Source: Phycisphaerales bacterium
GTDB taxonomy: Bacteria > Planctomycetota > Phycisphaerae > SM23-33 > FEN-1343
Assembly: GCA_003171335.1 (NCBI GenBank)
Contig: PMYD01000082.1
Location: forward strand, 2,518-66,517
Length of the DNA stretch: 64,000 bases
Direction: 5' to 3'
The position numbers and the translations under genes are program-made. Below the pieces are notes generated by a model. That model was not told the origin of the DNA and made no database searches. It was given only the letters and a program-made list of their open reading frames with translations. Shown in pieces: positions 6,769 to 63,975 of this stretch; the stretch's first letter is position 1, and each line of letters starts with the position of its first letter.

Positions 6769-6922
6769 CGTGGCACGGGCGTCTCGCCCGTGAGTGGCAC
6801 GGCCATCTTGGCCGTGATCCGGCCGTTTCTTGCGGCGTGGCACGGGCGTCTCGCCCGTGATCCGGGCGTTTCTTGCTGCGCGCCACGGGCGAGACGCCCA
6901 TGCCACGTTTTCATACACGTTC
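6769..6922. repeat. REP cluster CACGGGCGAGACGCCCGTG / CACGGCCATCTTGGCCGTG
   Basis: Same hairpins at 32200-32322 and 63256-63392. Confidence 0.85.
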
Positions 6923-14638: not shown

Positions 14639-15196
14639 ATGCCGCCCAAACCGAGCGATAAAACGACGCCGCCCAAGGCCAACCCGGCGCTGGCAGGCCT
14701 GTTGGCCTGGCTGGTCCCGGGCGCGGGCCACTTGTACCTCGACCGCCCCGTGCGGGCGGCGGTGCTGTTTATCGTGATTCAGGGCCTGTTCTGGTCCGGC
14801 GTGGCCGTCGGCGGCGTCTTTACGATCAATCCCCGCCAGGAAGTCTGGTGGACCCGCGCGCAGTTGCTCACCGGCCTGGGCGGCGTGGTGAGTTACCAGC
14901 GGCAAAAGACGAGATACAACGAATACTTCCGCGCCATCCTCCACGATGAGCCGCGGCTCACCCAGCCGCAGCGCGATGCCGCCGTGGATGAGCTCCTGGC
15001 CAGGGACCACCTGGCGCTGGTGCAGCCCACCAGCGGCGTGGCGTACGTGCTGTCGGGCGTGGCGGGCATGCTCAACCTCATGTGCATCTTCGACGCCGTG
15101 ATGCTGGCCCTGCTGGGCCAGATGGGTGAGCCGGCCGAGGCGGCCCAGGAGGGGCAGGCCAGCGCCACCCCGGCGGCCCCAAAGGGTGTGTCATGA
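14639..15196 (+). CDS. Membrane protein (DUF6677-like)
   Basis: LAWLVPGAGHLY...AGMLNLMCIFDA. Confidence 0.7.
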   Translation: MPPKPSDKTTPPKANPALAGLLAWLVPGAGHLYLDRPVRAAVLFIVIQGLFWSGVAVGGVFTINPRQEVWWTRAQLLTGLGGVVSYQRQKTRYNEYFRAILHDEPRLTQPQRDAAVDELLARDHLALVQPTSGVAYVLSGVAGMLNLMCIFDAVMLALLGQMGEPAEAAQEGQASATPAAPKGVS

Positions 15197-15414
15197 ACCT
15201 GCTGGCCACGCTGTTTATACATCCCCAGCACATCGCCGACAACGGCCTGTGGATCGTCGTGCCGCTCAGTATCGCCGTGGCCGCCGCGTACAAGGCCATC
15301 CGCACCGAATCCATCCGCCAACTGCCGCGCGAGATCTTCATGCTCACGCTCTACATCCTGGGCGGAGTCGTCGCCCTGATGATCGCGGGATGGGTGATTG
15401 TCTCGCTGAAGTAA
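15193..15414 (+). CDS. Small membrane protein
   Basis: ATGA-coupled; PLSIAVAAAYKAIR plus a second TM helix. Confidence 0.75.
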   Translation: MNLLATLFIHPQHIADNGLWIVVPLSIAVAAAYKAIRTESIRQLPREIFMLTLYILGGVVALMIAGWVIVSLK

Positions 15415-18530: not shown

Positions 18531-18983
18531 TCAACCCCACATCGTCTCGGGATCAAACGGAATGTGGTGCCGTTTCAGGAACGCAATGAATTCCTCTTCA
18601 TACGTCACCTTACGGTGATGCTCCGCCTGGCCGGCAATGTATGATTCCACATCCGGCCGAATGGAATCCGCCACCGTGAACGCGGCGTAACCCTGTTGCC
18701 ACTTGAAACGATCCTTGGGCTTGAGCGTTCGATTCACCCATCCGGTCGTGAGGCTCTTGAGCTTCCCCACCGCCGTCGGAACGCCTATCGGCGGCCTCAA
18801 CGAGATCAGCGCGTGCAGGTGGTTTTCCGTGCCGCCCAGGGCCAGGGCGCAGCCGAGTTCCTTCTTGGCAACGCCGCCGGCATATTCGTACAGGCGGTGC
18901 TGAAAATCCCGCGTAATGAGCGGCCGGCGGTCCTTCGTGCTGAAGATGACGTGATAGAGCAGGTGCGTGAATGTGTGGCTCAT
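18531..18983 (-). mobile_element. tnpA: IS200/IS605-family HUH (Y1) tyrosine transposase, REP-associated
   Basis: YHVIFSTKDR, NHLH (HUH), FKWQQGY, YIAGQAEHH; flanked by inverted REPs; no tnpB. Confidence 0.9.
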
Positions 18984-20887: not shown

Positions 20888-22156
20888 ATGTCATTAGAAT
20901 CGCTGATGTTAAAGCACATTCGCCTGGATGGCGACACGCAGACGCGTGTGAAGATGTCGGACAAGCTGATTGATGAATACGCCCGCCAGATGGCGGAAGG
21001 GGACGACTTTCCGCCCCTGGCGGTCATGTTCGATGGTGTGGACCACTGGCTGTACGACGGTTTTCACCGGTACTACGCCGCCGTGCAGCTTGGCCGCGAG
21101 CGATTGCCGGTCGAGGTGAAGGAGGGCACGCGGGAGGATGCCATCTGGGAGTCGCTGGGGGCAAATAAGACACACGGACTGAGGTTCACCTCAAAGGACA
21201 AGGCCAAGGCGATACGTAAGGCCTTGGAAAATTGGACAGATAGGACGGATGGCTACATCGCCAAGCACATAGGAGTTGACGAGAAGACCGTGAAGAAATA
21301 TCATCTGGAGCGGATTTCACGTCCGGAAATTCCGGACGTGAACCCCCGCCCAGATGCCTCAACTGAGGAATTTCCGCAGTTCGAGTTCGATGGAAGGCCC
21401 TCACGTCCGGGAATTCCGGACGTGAACCGCCGGCCAAATGCCTCAACTGAGGAATTTCCGCAGTTCGCGGTCGATGGAAGGCCTTCACGTCCGGAAATTC
21501 CGGACGTGGACCCCCGCCCAAGTACCTCAACTGAGGAATTTCCGCAGTTGGCGGTCGATGGAAGGCCTTCACGTCCGGAATTTCCGGACGTGACTCACGC
21601 GGAGAAATCCCCAACTGCGGAAATTCCGCAGTTGACCCGGCGTCTTGGGGCTGACGGCAAGTGGTACAAGCCTCGAAACAAACCCATCATCGGCCCGGAT
21701 CGCCGGCCGGCGCCGCCCGAGCCGGGGGCTCTGGCCAAGGAGCCGCCCGAGCGGGACATGCTTGGCCGGCCGTTTGAAGGCCCGCACGCCGAGCGGATGC
21801 GGCAGGTGTTCTCGTTTCAGCCGCGGATTGCCCAGCAGGTGCATCTCTTGGGCAGCCTGGGCGGTTTCATGCGCGACATGGCCGGCGATGGGCACCTAGT
21901 GTACGGGAAGATCGACCTGCCGCGTTTTCACGCTGGGCTCCGCCGGGCCATGAGCGCCCTCATGCGGATCTGCCCGCACATCATCTGCCCGCGCTGCCGC
22001 GGAGCCGGCTGCCAAGTCTGCCGCGGCTGGGGCTGGATTGATCAATGGGGCTGGCTCTCCTACGGCCGGCGGGGGCGAGTTGGTCCAGCTCAAGAAAACG
22101 GCGAACACGAAGACCACGAAGATCACAAAGAGCACAAAGAAAGGCCAAGAGAATGA
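20888..22156 (+). CDS. ParB/Srx N-terminal domain + HTH protein with internal palindromic repeat array and C-terminal CxxCxGxG zinc finger
   Basis: TQTR..IDEYA..FPPL..LYDGFHRYYAA..AN.THG; HTH TDGYIAKHIGVDEKTVKKY; RRLGADGKWY; CPRCRGAGCQVCRGWG. Confidence 0.85.
   Translation: MSLESLMLKHIRLDGDTQTRVKMSDKLIDEYARQMAEGDDFPPLAVMFDGVDHWLYDGFHRYYAAVQLGRERLPVEVKEGTREDAIWESLGANKTHGLRFTSKDKAKAIRKALENWTDRTDGYIAKHIGVDEKTVKKYHLERISRPEIPDVNPRPDASTEEFPQFEFDGRPSRPGIPDVNRRPNASTEEFPQFAVDGRPSRPEIPDVDPRPSTSTEEFPQLAVDGRPSRPEFPDVTHAEKSPTAEIPQLTRRLGADGKWYKPRNKPIIGPDRRPAPPEPGALAKEPPERDMLGRPFEGPHAERMRQVFSFQPRIAQQVHLLGSLGGFMRDMAGDGHLVYGKIDLPRFHAGLRRAMSALMRICPHIICPRCRGAGCQVCRGWGWIDQWGWLSYGRRGRVGPAQENGEHEDHEDHKEHKERPRE
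21316..21634. repeat. Eight ~23-27-bp palindromes at 42-bp spacing (84-bp tandem unit x4) inside the ParB-like gene
   Basis: Alternating CACGTCCGGAAATTCCGGACGTG and CAACTG(A/C)GGAAWTTCCGCAGTT. Confidence 0.95.
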
Positions 22157-32199: not shown

Positions 32200-32322
32200 C
32201 GTAGCACGGGCGTCTCGCCCGTGAGTAGCACGGCCATCTTGGCCGTGTTTTCGGCAGTCTTTCTTCGATTCGCCACGGGCGAGACGCCCGTGGAACTCAT
32301 GGGCGAGACGCCCATGCTACGC
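32200..32322. repeat. REP cluster CACGGGCGAGACGCCCGTG
   Basis: Matches 6769-6922. Confidence 0.85.
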
Positions 32323-47665: not shown

Positions 47666-48082
47666 ATGGCAACAAACGTTGCTGAGCCTATGGTCAGCGA
47701 GGCCATTCAAACGGCCGACTGGAAGAAAGAAAAACACGTGCCGATCATCGAATGCCCCGACACGTTCACCAAGGACCAGATGACTGATGTGAAGGTGACC
47801 CTGGGCAAGGAGATCGCCCACCCCAACACCACCGAGCACCACATCCGGTGGATCGATCTGTACTTCCTGCCCGATGATGGCAGCAAATTCGCCTTCCAGA
47901 TCGCCCACTTCGAGTTCACGGCCCACGGCGAATCGGTCAAAGGGCCAAACCAGGGGCCGGTTTACACCCACCACAGCGGGGCCACCAGCATGAAAACCGC
48001 CGTCGGCGGTACGCTTCAGGCCCTGGCCTTCTGCAATATTCACGGCCTGTGGCAGTCGACCAAGAAGATCTCGGTGCAGTAG
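47666..48082 (+). CDS. Class II SORL / desulfoferrodoxin-type superoxide reductase domain protein
   Basis: EKHVP, HPNTTEHHIRWI, CNIHGLW; AAGGAG RBS. Confidence 0.9.
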   Translation: MATNVAEPMVSEAIQTADWKKEKHVPIIECPDTFTKDQMTDVKVTLGKEIAHPNTTEHHIRWIDLYFLPDDGSKFAFQIAHFEFTAHGESVKGPNQGPVYTHHSGATSMKTAVGGTLQALAFCNIHGLWQSTKKISVQ

Positions 48083-48112: not shown

Positions 48113-48359
48113 TCAGGTGTCCGCGACGGACACCTGAGGCGGGGAATTCAACTGTCCGCGGCGGACAGTTGAACCGGGGCCACGGAATCCGCATAAGTGT
48201 TACATTCTTCTTCATTTGCGGACGAGTGTAACACTTAAATCGAGAAGACCTCAGGTGTGCGCGGCGCACACCTCTGATTTTGGATCGCACCTTTAAACCG
48301 TTTAAAGGTGAAAGCGCCTATTAGTAATGATAAGGGTCACGTGCGCAATTGCGCACCTG
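48113..48359. repeat. Cluster of six different ~22-27-bp palindromes
   Basis: See findings; each is self-complementary, shared outer bases, different interiors. Confidence 0.8.
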
Positions 48360-48475
48360 CCTTGACCCGACCTGTCAAAATGCGCGCGCGGGGCACTTGG
48401 ACTGCCTAAACTGTCATTAGGGCGGATATGGGCTGATTTTGATAATGATAACATTAGCAATAACTTATGCTTTCC

Positions 48476-48491
48476 AGGCATGCTTATTGCA
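48476..48491 (+). promoter_or_regulatory. Putative sigma54 promoter of dnaK
   Basis: AGGCATGCTTATTGCA = GG-N10-GC, close to TGGCACG-N4-TTGCW. Confidence 0.6.
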
Positions 48492-48539: not shown

Positions 48540-50471
48540 ATGGCAAGCAAGAAGATCATCGGCATTGACCTTGGCACCACCAACAGCGTCGTGGCCCTCA
48601 TGGAAGGCAGTGCCCCCAAGGTACTTATCAACCAGCAGGGCAGCCGGCTGACCCCCAGCGTGGTGGCCCTCACGGATAAGGGCGAGTGGTTAGTAGGCCA
48701 GGCGGCCAAACACCAGCAGGTGACCAACCCGAAGAACACCGTCTTCTCGATCAAGCGCTTCATGGGCCGGCGGCACAATGAAGTGGCCACGGAAGAGAAG
48801 ATGGTGCCCTACGAGATCGTCGGCGGGCCCGACGAGCTGGTGAAGGTCCGCATTCGCGGCAAGGATTACACGCCGCCGGAAATCTCGGCGATGATTCTCC
48901 AGGATCTCAAGAAGACCGCCGAGGACTACCTGGGCGAGAAGGTGGAGCGCGCCGTCATCACGGTGCCGGCGTACTTCAACGATGCCCAGCGCCAGGCCAC
49001 CAAGGATGCCGGCGAGATCGCCGGGCTGAAGGTCGAGCGCATTATTAACGAACCCACCGCCGCAGCGCTGGCCTATGGGCTCGAGAAGAAGCGCAACGAG
49101 AAGGTGGCCGTTTTCGACTTCGGCGGCGGCACGTTCGACATCTCGAACATGGACATCGGCGACAACGTCTTTGAAGTGCTCTCCACCAACGGCGACACGC
49201 ATCTTGGCGGCGATGACCTCGACGAGGTGCTCATCCACTACATCGCCGATGAGTTCAAGAAGCAGGAAGGCGTGGACCTGCGCACGGACCCGATGGCCCT
49301 CCAGCGGCTCAAGGAAGCCGCCGAGAAGGCCAAGTGCGAGTTGTCCACGGCGATGGAGGCGAGCATCAACCTGCCCTTCATCACCGCCACGCAGACCGGC
49401 CCCAAGCACCTGACGATGACGCTGACCCGGGCCAAGCTGGAGCAGCTCTGCGGGCCCGTCTTCGACCGGCTGGTGGGCCCGTGCAAGCAAGCCTTGGCCG
49501 ATGCCAAGGTCACCCCCGAGGATGTGGACGAGGTGGTGCTGGTCGGCGGCTCGACACGCATTCCGCGCGTCCGCCAGATCGCCAAGGACATTTACCGCAA
49601 GGAGCCCAACAAGAGCATCAACCCCGACGAGGTGGTGGGCCTGGGCGCCGCCGTCCAGGGCGGCATCCTGGCGGGTGAAGTGGAAGAGCAGATGGTGCTG
49701 CTGGATGTCACGCCGCTGTCGCTGGGCGTGGAGACGCTTGGCGGCGTGATGACCAAGCTCATCGAACGCAACACCACCATTCCCACGGAGAAGAAGGAAA
49801 CCTTCTCCACCGCCGCCGACAACCAGACCGAGGTGACCATCCACGTGCTCCAGGGCGAGCGCGATTTCGCCCGCGACAACCGCACGCTGGGGCGCTTTAA
49901 TCTGACCGGGCTGCCGCCGGCGCCGCGCGGGCTGCCGCAGATCGAGGTGACGTTCAATATCGACGCCAACGGCATCCTGAACGTTTCCGCCAAGGACCTG
50001 GCCACGAGCAAACAGCAGTCCATCGAGATCAAGGGCTCTTCCGGCCTCAACCAGGCCGAGATCGACCGCATGAAGAAGGATGCCGAGGAGCATGCCGCCG
50101 ATGACAAGCAGCGGCACGAACTGATCGACCTGAAGAACCAGGCCGATCACCTGGCCTGGACGGCCGAGAAGACGCTCCGCGAGCAGGGCGAGAAGGTTTC
50201 CGCCTCCGATCGCTCGAATATCGAGTCGGCCATCACCGCCGTGCGCGAGGCCAACAAGGGCGATGACGCCGAGGCCATTCGCCGCGCCATGAGCCGCCTG
50301 GAGCAGGCCAGTCACAAGCTGGCCGAGGCCATGTACGAGCAGGTCAAGGGCCAAAAAGCCCAGCAGGCCCCGCCCGGCCCCCAGCCGCAGGGCGAACAAC
50401 CCGGTGGCGAAGGCCCCAAGAAAGGCGGCGGCGACGACGTGATCGATGCGGAATATGAAGTGAAGGAATAG
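48540..50471 (+). CDS. dnaK: Molecular chaperone DnaK
   Basis: [39 protein letters not shown]. Confidence 0.98.
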
Positions 50472-63256: not shown

Positions 63257-63392
63257 GAACGTGTATGAAAACCGGCTCCGATCGTGGCACGGCCATCTTG
63301 GCGGTGAATCCGGCCGTTTCTTGCGCCGCCACGGGCGAGACGCCCGTGGGACTCATGGGCGGGACGCCCATGCCACGTTTCCATACACATTC
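63256..63392. repeat. REP cluster CACGGGCGAGACGCCCGTG with AGAACGTGTATGAAAA / TTTCCATACACATTCT flanks
   Basis: Matches 6769-6922, including the right flank. Confidence 0.85.
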
Positions 63393-63724: not shown

Positions 63725-63975
63725 TCAACTGGTGAAATTCACCAGTTGACTGCCTTCCGGCCGTGCGAGGGGTCGGATTCCGGCCCTTACGCTCCAGCCC
63801 CAACTGAGGAATTTCCTCAGTTGAGGAAAATTCGGGCAGGCGAGGGGTTCGGGTCCAGCCCTTACGCCCAGGCCTCGACTGGTGAATTTCACCAGTTGAG
63901 CACCATCCGGACAGGCGAAAGGTGCAATTCCAGCCCTTACGCTCCGGCCCCAACTGAGGAATTTCCTCAGTTGAA
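63725..63975. repeat. Array of four 23-bp palindromes at 75-bp period (may continue beyond the window)
   Basis: CAACTGGTGAAWTTCACCAGTTG alternating with CAACTGAGGAATTTCCTCAGTTG; centres 63737, 63812, 63887, 63962. Confidence 0.92.

Follow-up and report, generated by a model that had tools for sequence, protein, structure and literature searches.

The six palindromes between a superoxide-reductase-like gene and dnaK, in the 64,000-nucleotide stretch of DNA analyzed here (the window), are a typical, not a special, member of a genome-wide family of 23-bp palindromic sites. The same palindromes lie directly behind the helix-turn-helix (HTH) in genes for solitary ParB-like proteins, and the bases of their cores are predicted by HTH residues. 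Based on these correspondences, the mosaic arrays likely provide duplex loading sites for solitary ParB-like HTH proteins, a family that the genus itself has expanded, with each variant probably read by a different specificity. We give this reading somewhat more than even credence. The system behind the array is unusual, although the array itself is typical.

The array upstream of dnaK and its genome-wide family

The desulfoferrodoxin/superoxide-reductase-like gene (SOR; 47666–48082, + strand; PF01880, E 1.8e-29) and dnaK (48540–50471, + strand; named from the sequence of its open reading frame translation) are separated by 457 bp, and all six units, P1 to P6 (no strand assigned), lie within this gap at the positions first reported. 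Five palindromes with arms of at least 8 bp occur there, compared with a maximum of two and a mean of 0.018 in 3000 shuffles. The positions of the units in the preliminary description stand, but two details of their anatomy do not: P1 (48113–48137) has an 11-1-11 layout with one mismatch in place of the loop described, and P6 (48338–48359; core GCGCAA) is a 23-mer without its central base. P1, a 23-bp site with the arm cores GTCCGC and GTCCGT, has no resident cognate protein, and its central 15 bp, asymmetry included, equal the in-gene site of a ParB-like gene in locus L274. P2 (48147–48173) is a perfect 23-bp site with core GTCCGC, has two further exact copies in the genome and is one step from the in-gene site (GTCCGT) of L331. 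P4 (unit at 48253–48273, full 23-bp site at 48252–48274; core GTGCGC, 16 sites of this core) differs at a single position from the core inside the L092 gene, and P6 is the in-gene site of L076 minus the centre and plus one outer change, the same core being present in L125 and L166. The perfect 23-bp site P5 (48288–48310; core TTAAAC, 25 sites) is the only unit of the six with a resident cognate gene (G000:C159, where G000 is the genome of the window).

The third unit, P3 (48194–48237), had been taken for an interrupted palindrome, but it belongs to a recurrent 44/45-bp form with 30 copies, in which a core, degenerate in P3, lies between two TAAGTGTTAC(A) half-sites. The TAAGTGTTAC half-site occurs 93 times, 58 of them paired across 19–23 bp; of the 35 left unpaired, 17 lie directly against the arm of a 23-mer in a loose test. 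In G001, a relative of the same genus, each of four copies of the P3 form encloses a clear 23-mer core. Judged by this layout, P3 is a core plus two extra flanking half-sites and no damaged unit.

Among perfect palindromes with 10-bp arms in G000, 351 have a 1-nt centre, compared with 21–68 for each other loop size from 0 to 8. With 49 perfect arm types as seeds and three mismatches allowed, the family comprises 709 sites (11-1-11, 23 bp; in-gene copies and probably a few chance matches included) with 33 six-base cores in 189 clusters, and a 1-Mb Markov control contained no family site. Recurrence of the palindromes elsewhere in the genome was thus found. According to a home-made gene caller (2909 genes), 83 clusters lie in tandem, 44 in divergent and 30 in convergent gaps, 23 at edges or overlaps and 9 inside genes; these classes track intergenic length (58, 26, and 16%) and not promoters. 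The clusters are spread evenly over the 29 largest contigs (chi2 21.6; assembly of 169 contigs). At least four different cores are present in 38 of the 189 clusters, so the P1–P6 array is not unique; its cores co-occur at many loci, seldom with the commonest cores. Across the genome, non-redundant spacings follow a period of about 10.4 bp (207 pairs; R 0.23, Rayleigh p ~1e-5; jitter control at most 0.21), and the P1–P6 array itself is poorly phased, with spacings of 3.4, 5.3, 4.6, 3.5, and 4.8 turns. A second intergenic array of the family, with resident cores, lies in the same window (63725–63973, no strand assigned). An Rfam search gave chance-level matches only, none at the gathering score.

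A family pattern matched 260 times in G000, 69 times in G001 and 0–4 times in 29 other relatives, and a second pattern matched 169 times in G000 and 0–4 times in 300 genomes of the class. As far as these patterns reach, the expansion is limited to this genus; neither pattern spans the whole family, and expansions whose outer bases differ would escape them.

Other repeats accompany the clusters. A 28-bp 11-6-11 palindrome family with a TAAGTGTATGG arm has 20 copies in G000 (e.g., C12:22711–22738), of which 17 adjoin 23-mer clusters, and its layout may resemble that of dif-type sites. An AT-rich module of AATATGCGC palindromes has 22 matches in G000 (e.g., C23:6538 and C52:5015) and often adjoins a TAAGTGTTAC half-site. 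Several arrays contain a motif that presumably resembles the NrdR box (G000:C75:47418–47726, C25:24973–25306, and C151:12170–12501). In a NuoM-like gene, a 14-site array lies in the called frame as a C-terminal extension (G000:C165:46370–46958), which may reflect read-through or a miscall.

ParB-like genes and the code between HTH residues and core bases

G000 carries ten solitary ParB-like genes, each with family palindromes directly behind the HTH, and an HTH profile search of the genome found no source gene beyond these paralogues. One of the ten lies in the window (20888–22156, + strand) and has eight in-frame sites. Between two and eight in-frame sites are carried by this gene, by those on C159 and C168 of G000 and by P0001 and P0002; some of the extra sites have the cores of other paralogues, which would permit cross-regulation. 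The neighbours of the paralogues are unrelated housekeeping genes, and the paralogues share a promoter-like upstream segment, having been copied as gene plus promoter (~1.3 kb). An IS-like gene unit was considered and rejected, as terminal repeats were not seen and integrase and transposase were absent among the neighbouring proteins. A scan of 51 of the 56 neighbouring proteins called revealed no ParA partner, and the ParA-binding LG-R/K-GL motif, which is present in the true parB on C112, is by eye absent from all ten.

A structure model of the first 160 residues is matched in fold by Noc, ParB, and KorB, with a Foldseek E-value of 3.7e-08 for Noc (7ng0). GFHR is invariant in the family, and we take it to be the CTP motif GxxR. 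The modelled C-terminus is a helical hairpin with a Cys4 motif and has generic helical-hairpin matches only (Z at most 6.5). Searches of the protein revealed neither a nuclease nor a transposase domain, and both models start with a beta strand, with no helix before it that could be an N-terminal amphipathic helix.

Homologues were collected as 180 loci (L numbers) from relatives, genomes, and viruses, of which 178 could be anchored. In 107 of the 178, the HTH is followed by a palindrome in which at least nine of ten positions pair, compared with one of 178 control windows. After removal of near-duplicates, 86 genes remained, in which the palindromes occupy three reading frames (55, 21, and 10). 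The occurrence of the same cores in three frames points to a constraint on the DNA, and the idea of self-coding, in which the peptide that recognizes the palindrome would itself be encoded by it, was rejected for the same reason. In phages and other bacteria the in-gene palindrome is usually the sole copy: a second copy is absent in 70 of 75 external loci, and five other genomes with ParB-like genes have 0–2 pattern matches. Even G031, with at least nine paralogous loci, shows no site spread by the pattern used. Together with its ParB kin, the family comprises 29,575 clusters at E 0.001. Of three almost identical paralogues in G001, one, L227 (G001:C9:145934), carries a frameshift just after the site, and in L035 the site is missing. 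On the viral contig L164, some 8 kb away from its ParB-like gene, three additional palindromes (14887–15247) look like members of the family but have cores that differ from that of the gene.

Residues of the HTH covary with bases of the core. In the 86 non-redundant genes, residue +2 covaries with base -5 (z 22; His-G 29/32, Glu-C 14/14, Gln-A 8/8) and residue -8 with base -6 (z 20; Arg-G 41/41), z-scores that ignore kinship, and residue +3 with bases -4/-3 (Lys-GG 29/29). In leave-one-out prediction, the HTH recovered 4.4 of 6 bases compared with 2.6 for the N-domain and 2.7 at random. Pairs of genes in different frames that have three residues in common agree at 5.4 of 6 bases compared with 2.0, and whatever the N-domain identity of a pair, three common helix residues go with agreement at 5.1–5.6 of 6 bases. 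No such effect on the core is seen for residues nearer the site than the HTH. The distance from HTH to site is about 50 bp, and module swapping could add to the covariation. By these comparisons of sequences, the core can be predicted from HTH residues whatever the ancestry or frame, which makes the palindromes likely protein-binding sites, and each ParB-like protein likely binds its own in-gene site. The earlier proposal that the intergenic palindromes are distinct operator-like sites related to those of the ParB genes is therefore supported.

The following scheme can be proposed for the system. The in-gene site may serve as a self-operator or loading site. Array segments would be copied to new intergenic places by a putative enzyme, and conversion would either exchange cores or alter them in both arms. 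Five of the six units here have cores for which the genome encodes no known reader; such cores could be relics of paralogues lost or unassembled. Resident proteins may load as CTP-dependent clamps chromosome-wide, in a Noc-like manner and without specific control of the neighbour gene. A wider and more tentative reading is multi-specificity DNA addressing, with a few-residue code and exchangeable, helically phased cassettes, which might function as a combinatorial landing network over the whole chromosome or as an adaptive decoy library against family members encoded by phages.

Array turnover and rival explanations

The preliminary description suggested that the palindromes were possibly acquired one by one. 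The arrays do not bear out such serial capture from outside. Types co-travel, neighbouring units and spacers resemble those of other arrays, and no mismatch or age gradient along the arrays was found in 80 clusters. A one-step neighbour exists for 29 of the 33 cores, compared with 21.6 in foreign-site samples, and the cores form a network of 10 components compared with 16.8, a value reached by none of 1000 external samples. Among 307 flank-homologous site pairs in different clusters, the core differs in 101; 66 of these swaps represent one type pair and are not independent, and some differ at five positions per arm. Sixty-two sites join two different known arms.

Comparison with G001 also points to rapid change. 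The SOR–dnaK gene order is kept in G001, where the gap holds a single, different site. Of 26 G001 loci examined, 18 have both flanks orthologous, and with the SOR–dnaK locus left out, 4 of the 17 orthologous gaps share sites with G000, never with the same content. The resident core of G001 has 16 copies there and 5 in G000, and the P1/P2/P4 core group has one copy in G001. Contigs from four sequencing runs break inside the P1–P6 array, and neither gain nor loss is visible in them; no RNA run was among the sequencing runs listed. Segment copying and core conversion within the lineage appear to fit these comparisons better than serial capture.

The arrays could instead be decoys, that is, an operator library in which mixed arrays spanning many specificities titrate ParB-like proteins of incoming phages or elements; we regard this as improbable. 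The family is encoded in 437 viral stretches, the cores of P1, P2, and P6 equal in-gene sites of foreign genes, and the repertoires of the sister genomes differ, with 8 of the 22 G001 cores in the G000 list. Of the 26 non-resident cores, 15 differ at no more than one position from an arm of a site inside a foreign gene, compared with 9.3 after shuffling (p 0.003), but exact foreign matches number 3 of 26 compared with 1.0 (p 0.075). Peptide back-matching for the sources of these cores (9/26, p 0.09; 6/26, p 0.13) was not significant; P0002, a close relative, matches a non-resident type over eight residues. A metagenome scan with the P2/P4 pattern gave 103 matches, two of them ParB-like genes (L274 and L331) and 101 outside such genes. 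No viral source for P1–P4 was found: viral scans gave no match for the P1/P4 pattern or the P3 form, and the four matches to the P2/P4 core do not lie in a ParB-like gene. Capture or decoy collection is further opposed by the closer relationship of the cores to one another than in foreign-site samples, by the lack of polarity in the arrays and by the absence of the commonest foreign outer bases (CATCT, TCACT, and TATCT) from the 49 arm types. No family site lies within 2.5 kb of an integrase in G000.

Somewhat less probable still is the view that the sites are neutral, selfish REP/BIME-like hairpins which derive from the gene palindrome, spread by a resident RAYT or recombination and bind little or no protein. 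The sites are genus-specific, intergenic, mostly unconserved in position and, in 57 of 83 tandem gaps, nearer the stop codon, and the genome has eight strong Y1-transposase genes among 13 matches. Nevertheless, the GTAG/GTGG/CGTC tag is not enriched (35 of 709 compared with 56 of 681 control positions), and no site lies closer than 2.3 kb to the eight RAYT genes, the nearest being 2.4–18.5 kb away for seven and the contig of the eighth being siteless in an incomplete assembly. A centre of 1 nt and phasing by the helical turn are consistent with binding to duplex DNA, and abundant cores match resident proteins: resident cores account for 388 of the 709 sites, and the 321 sites without a resident reader include the second commonest core (95 copies) in an assembly that is 90.9% complete. 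The window also contains a RAYT-type Y1 transposase gene (18627–18968) and tagged REP-type hairpins (6774–6859, 32205–32316, and 63329–63372), a repeat family distinct from the 23-bp sites.

A promoter of dnaK at 48476–48491 (+ strand), which we take to be of the sigma-54 -24/-12 type by the consensus generally known, is kept across the order, being present at all 19 dnaK starts that could be located in the 20 loci examined. A conserved motif shared with G001 (48369–48380, + strand), a candidate dnaK activator site, ends the variable array region. The CIRCE inverted repeat before dnaK is the operator of HrcA, and the window contains no match to its consensus with up to three mismatches. Family palindromes occur upstream of dnaK only in G000 and G001 and are absent in all 17 located loci outside the genus; since dnaK keeps its own sigma-54 promoter, downstream of the array, the array is unlikely to be a dnaK operator set, and P1–P6 are probably no switches for dnaK. 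A clamp loaded so near the candidate activator site, at a distance of 10 bp, could still influence dnaK. That the units are dnaK operators, or terminators or stabilizers of the SOR transcript, is therefore very unlikely: the array starts 31 nt past the SOR stop and adjoins the candidate activator site, its RNA would fold strongly (z -6.3) and G001 also has one site in the gap, but the array content is wholly different from that of G001 and, as first noted, U-tails are lacking, with a weak terminator-like call for P4 only (one of six units) that falls within the shuffle range. The alternative of invariant, ordinary dnaK operators or terminators raised at the outset thus fails, since the sites recur in the genome and vary between relatives.

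Comparison with known systems

The literature searched, mostly open-access papers, contained no description of sites inside such genes or of comparable arrays. With the likely target of each protein lying within its own gene, natural protein–site pairs become readable by the thousand from sequence alone. They provide an HTH recognition code that is open to direct testing and much larger than the ParB/Noc pair on which studies of the evolution of specificity have so far relied. The ParB-like genes are also a source of orthogonal ParB/parS-type DNA labels, and operator sites that escaped from their genes are a possible origin for REP-like repeats without a transposase tag.

Several known systems share part of this design. 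Unlike CRISPR-like arrays, the units vary, the spacers recur and no polar growth was seen in 80 clusters; unlike intrinsic terminators, the six units have no U-tract. HerB/YfjB of conjugative plasmids is, by its published summary, likewise a ParB-like HTH protein of a mobile element with many chromosomal sites, and that summary, compared by description only, does not mention in-gene sites or site arrays (PMC13370423). With ParB-parS and RK2 KorB-OB, the system shares a ParB/Srx domain with an HTH and likely clamp loading at a palindrome (PMC12704722, in the portion consulted); in contrast to these, the ParB-like genes have no parA neighbour and no LG-R/K-GL motif, and their sites are even over contigs instead of clustered.

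The REP/BIME elements, as far as the excerpted account describes them, are similar in that palindromes confined to a lineage occur between genes by the hundred, in mosaic clusters and frequently right behind stop codons, and different in that the 23-bp sites have no terminal tag or flanked RAYT and form a perfect dyad with a 1-nt centre (PMC3733652). The variable core of the 23-bp sites is, moreover, tied to an HTH code, and their source lies inside the gene of a DNA-binding protein. Noc of Bacillus subtilis is an orphan ParB-fold HTH protein with palindromic sites (NBS) scattered round the chromosome, and its specificity is set by a few interface residues, according to the parts of the reports available (PMC8429893, PMC7383237). 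The ParB-like family resembles it in its ParB-CTPase fold with an HTH, the top fold matches being Noc, and in its scattered palindromes with specificity from few residues. Unlike the one protein and one 16-bp site of the Noc accounts, ten paralogues and 33 cores are present here, with 23-bp sites, a site inside the gene, and mixed, fast-changing arrays, and the ParB-like models lack the N-terminal membrane helix of Noc and end in the helical hairpin with Cys4. By analogy, the mode of action of the 23-bp system is likely that of Noc at NBS sites and its layout is that of a BIME, but the system lacks defining features of both.
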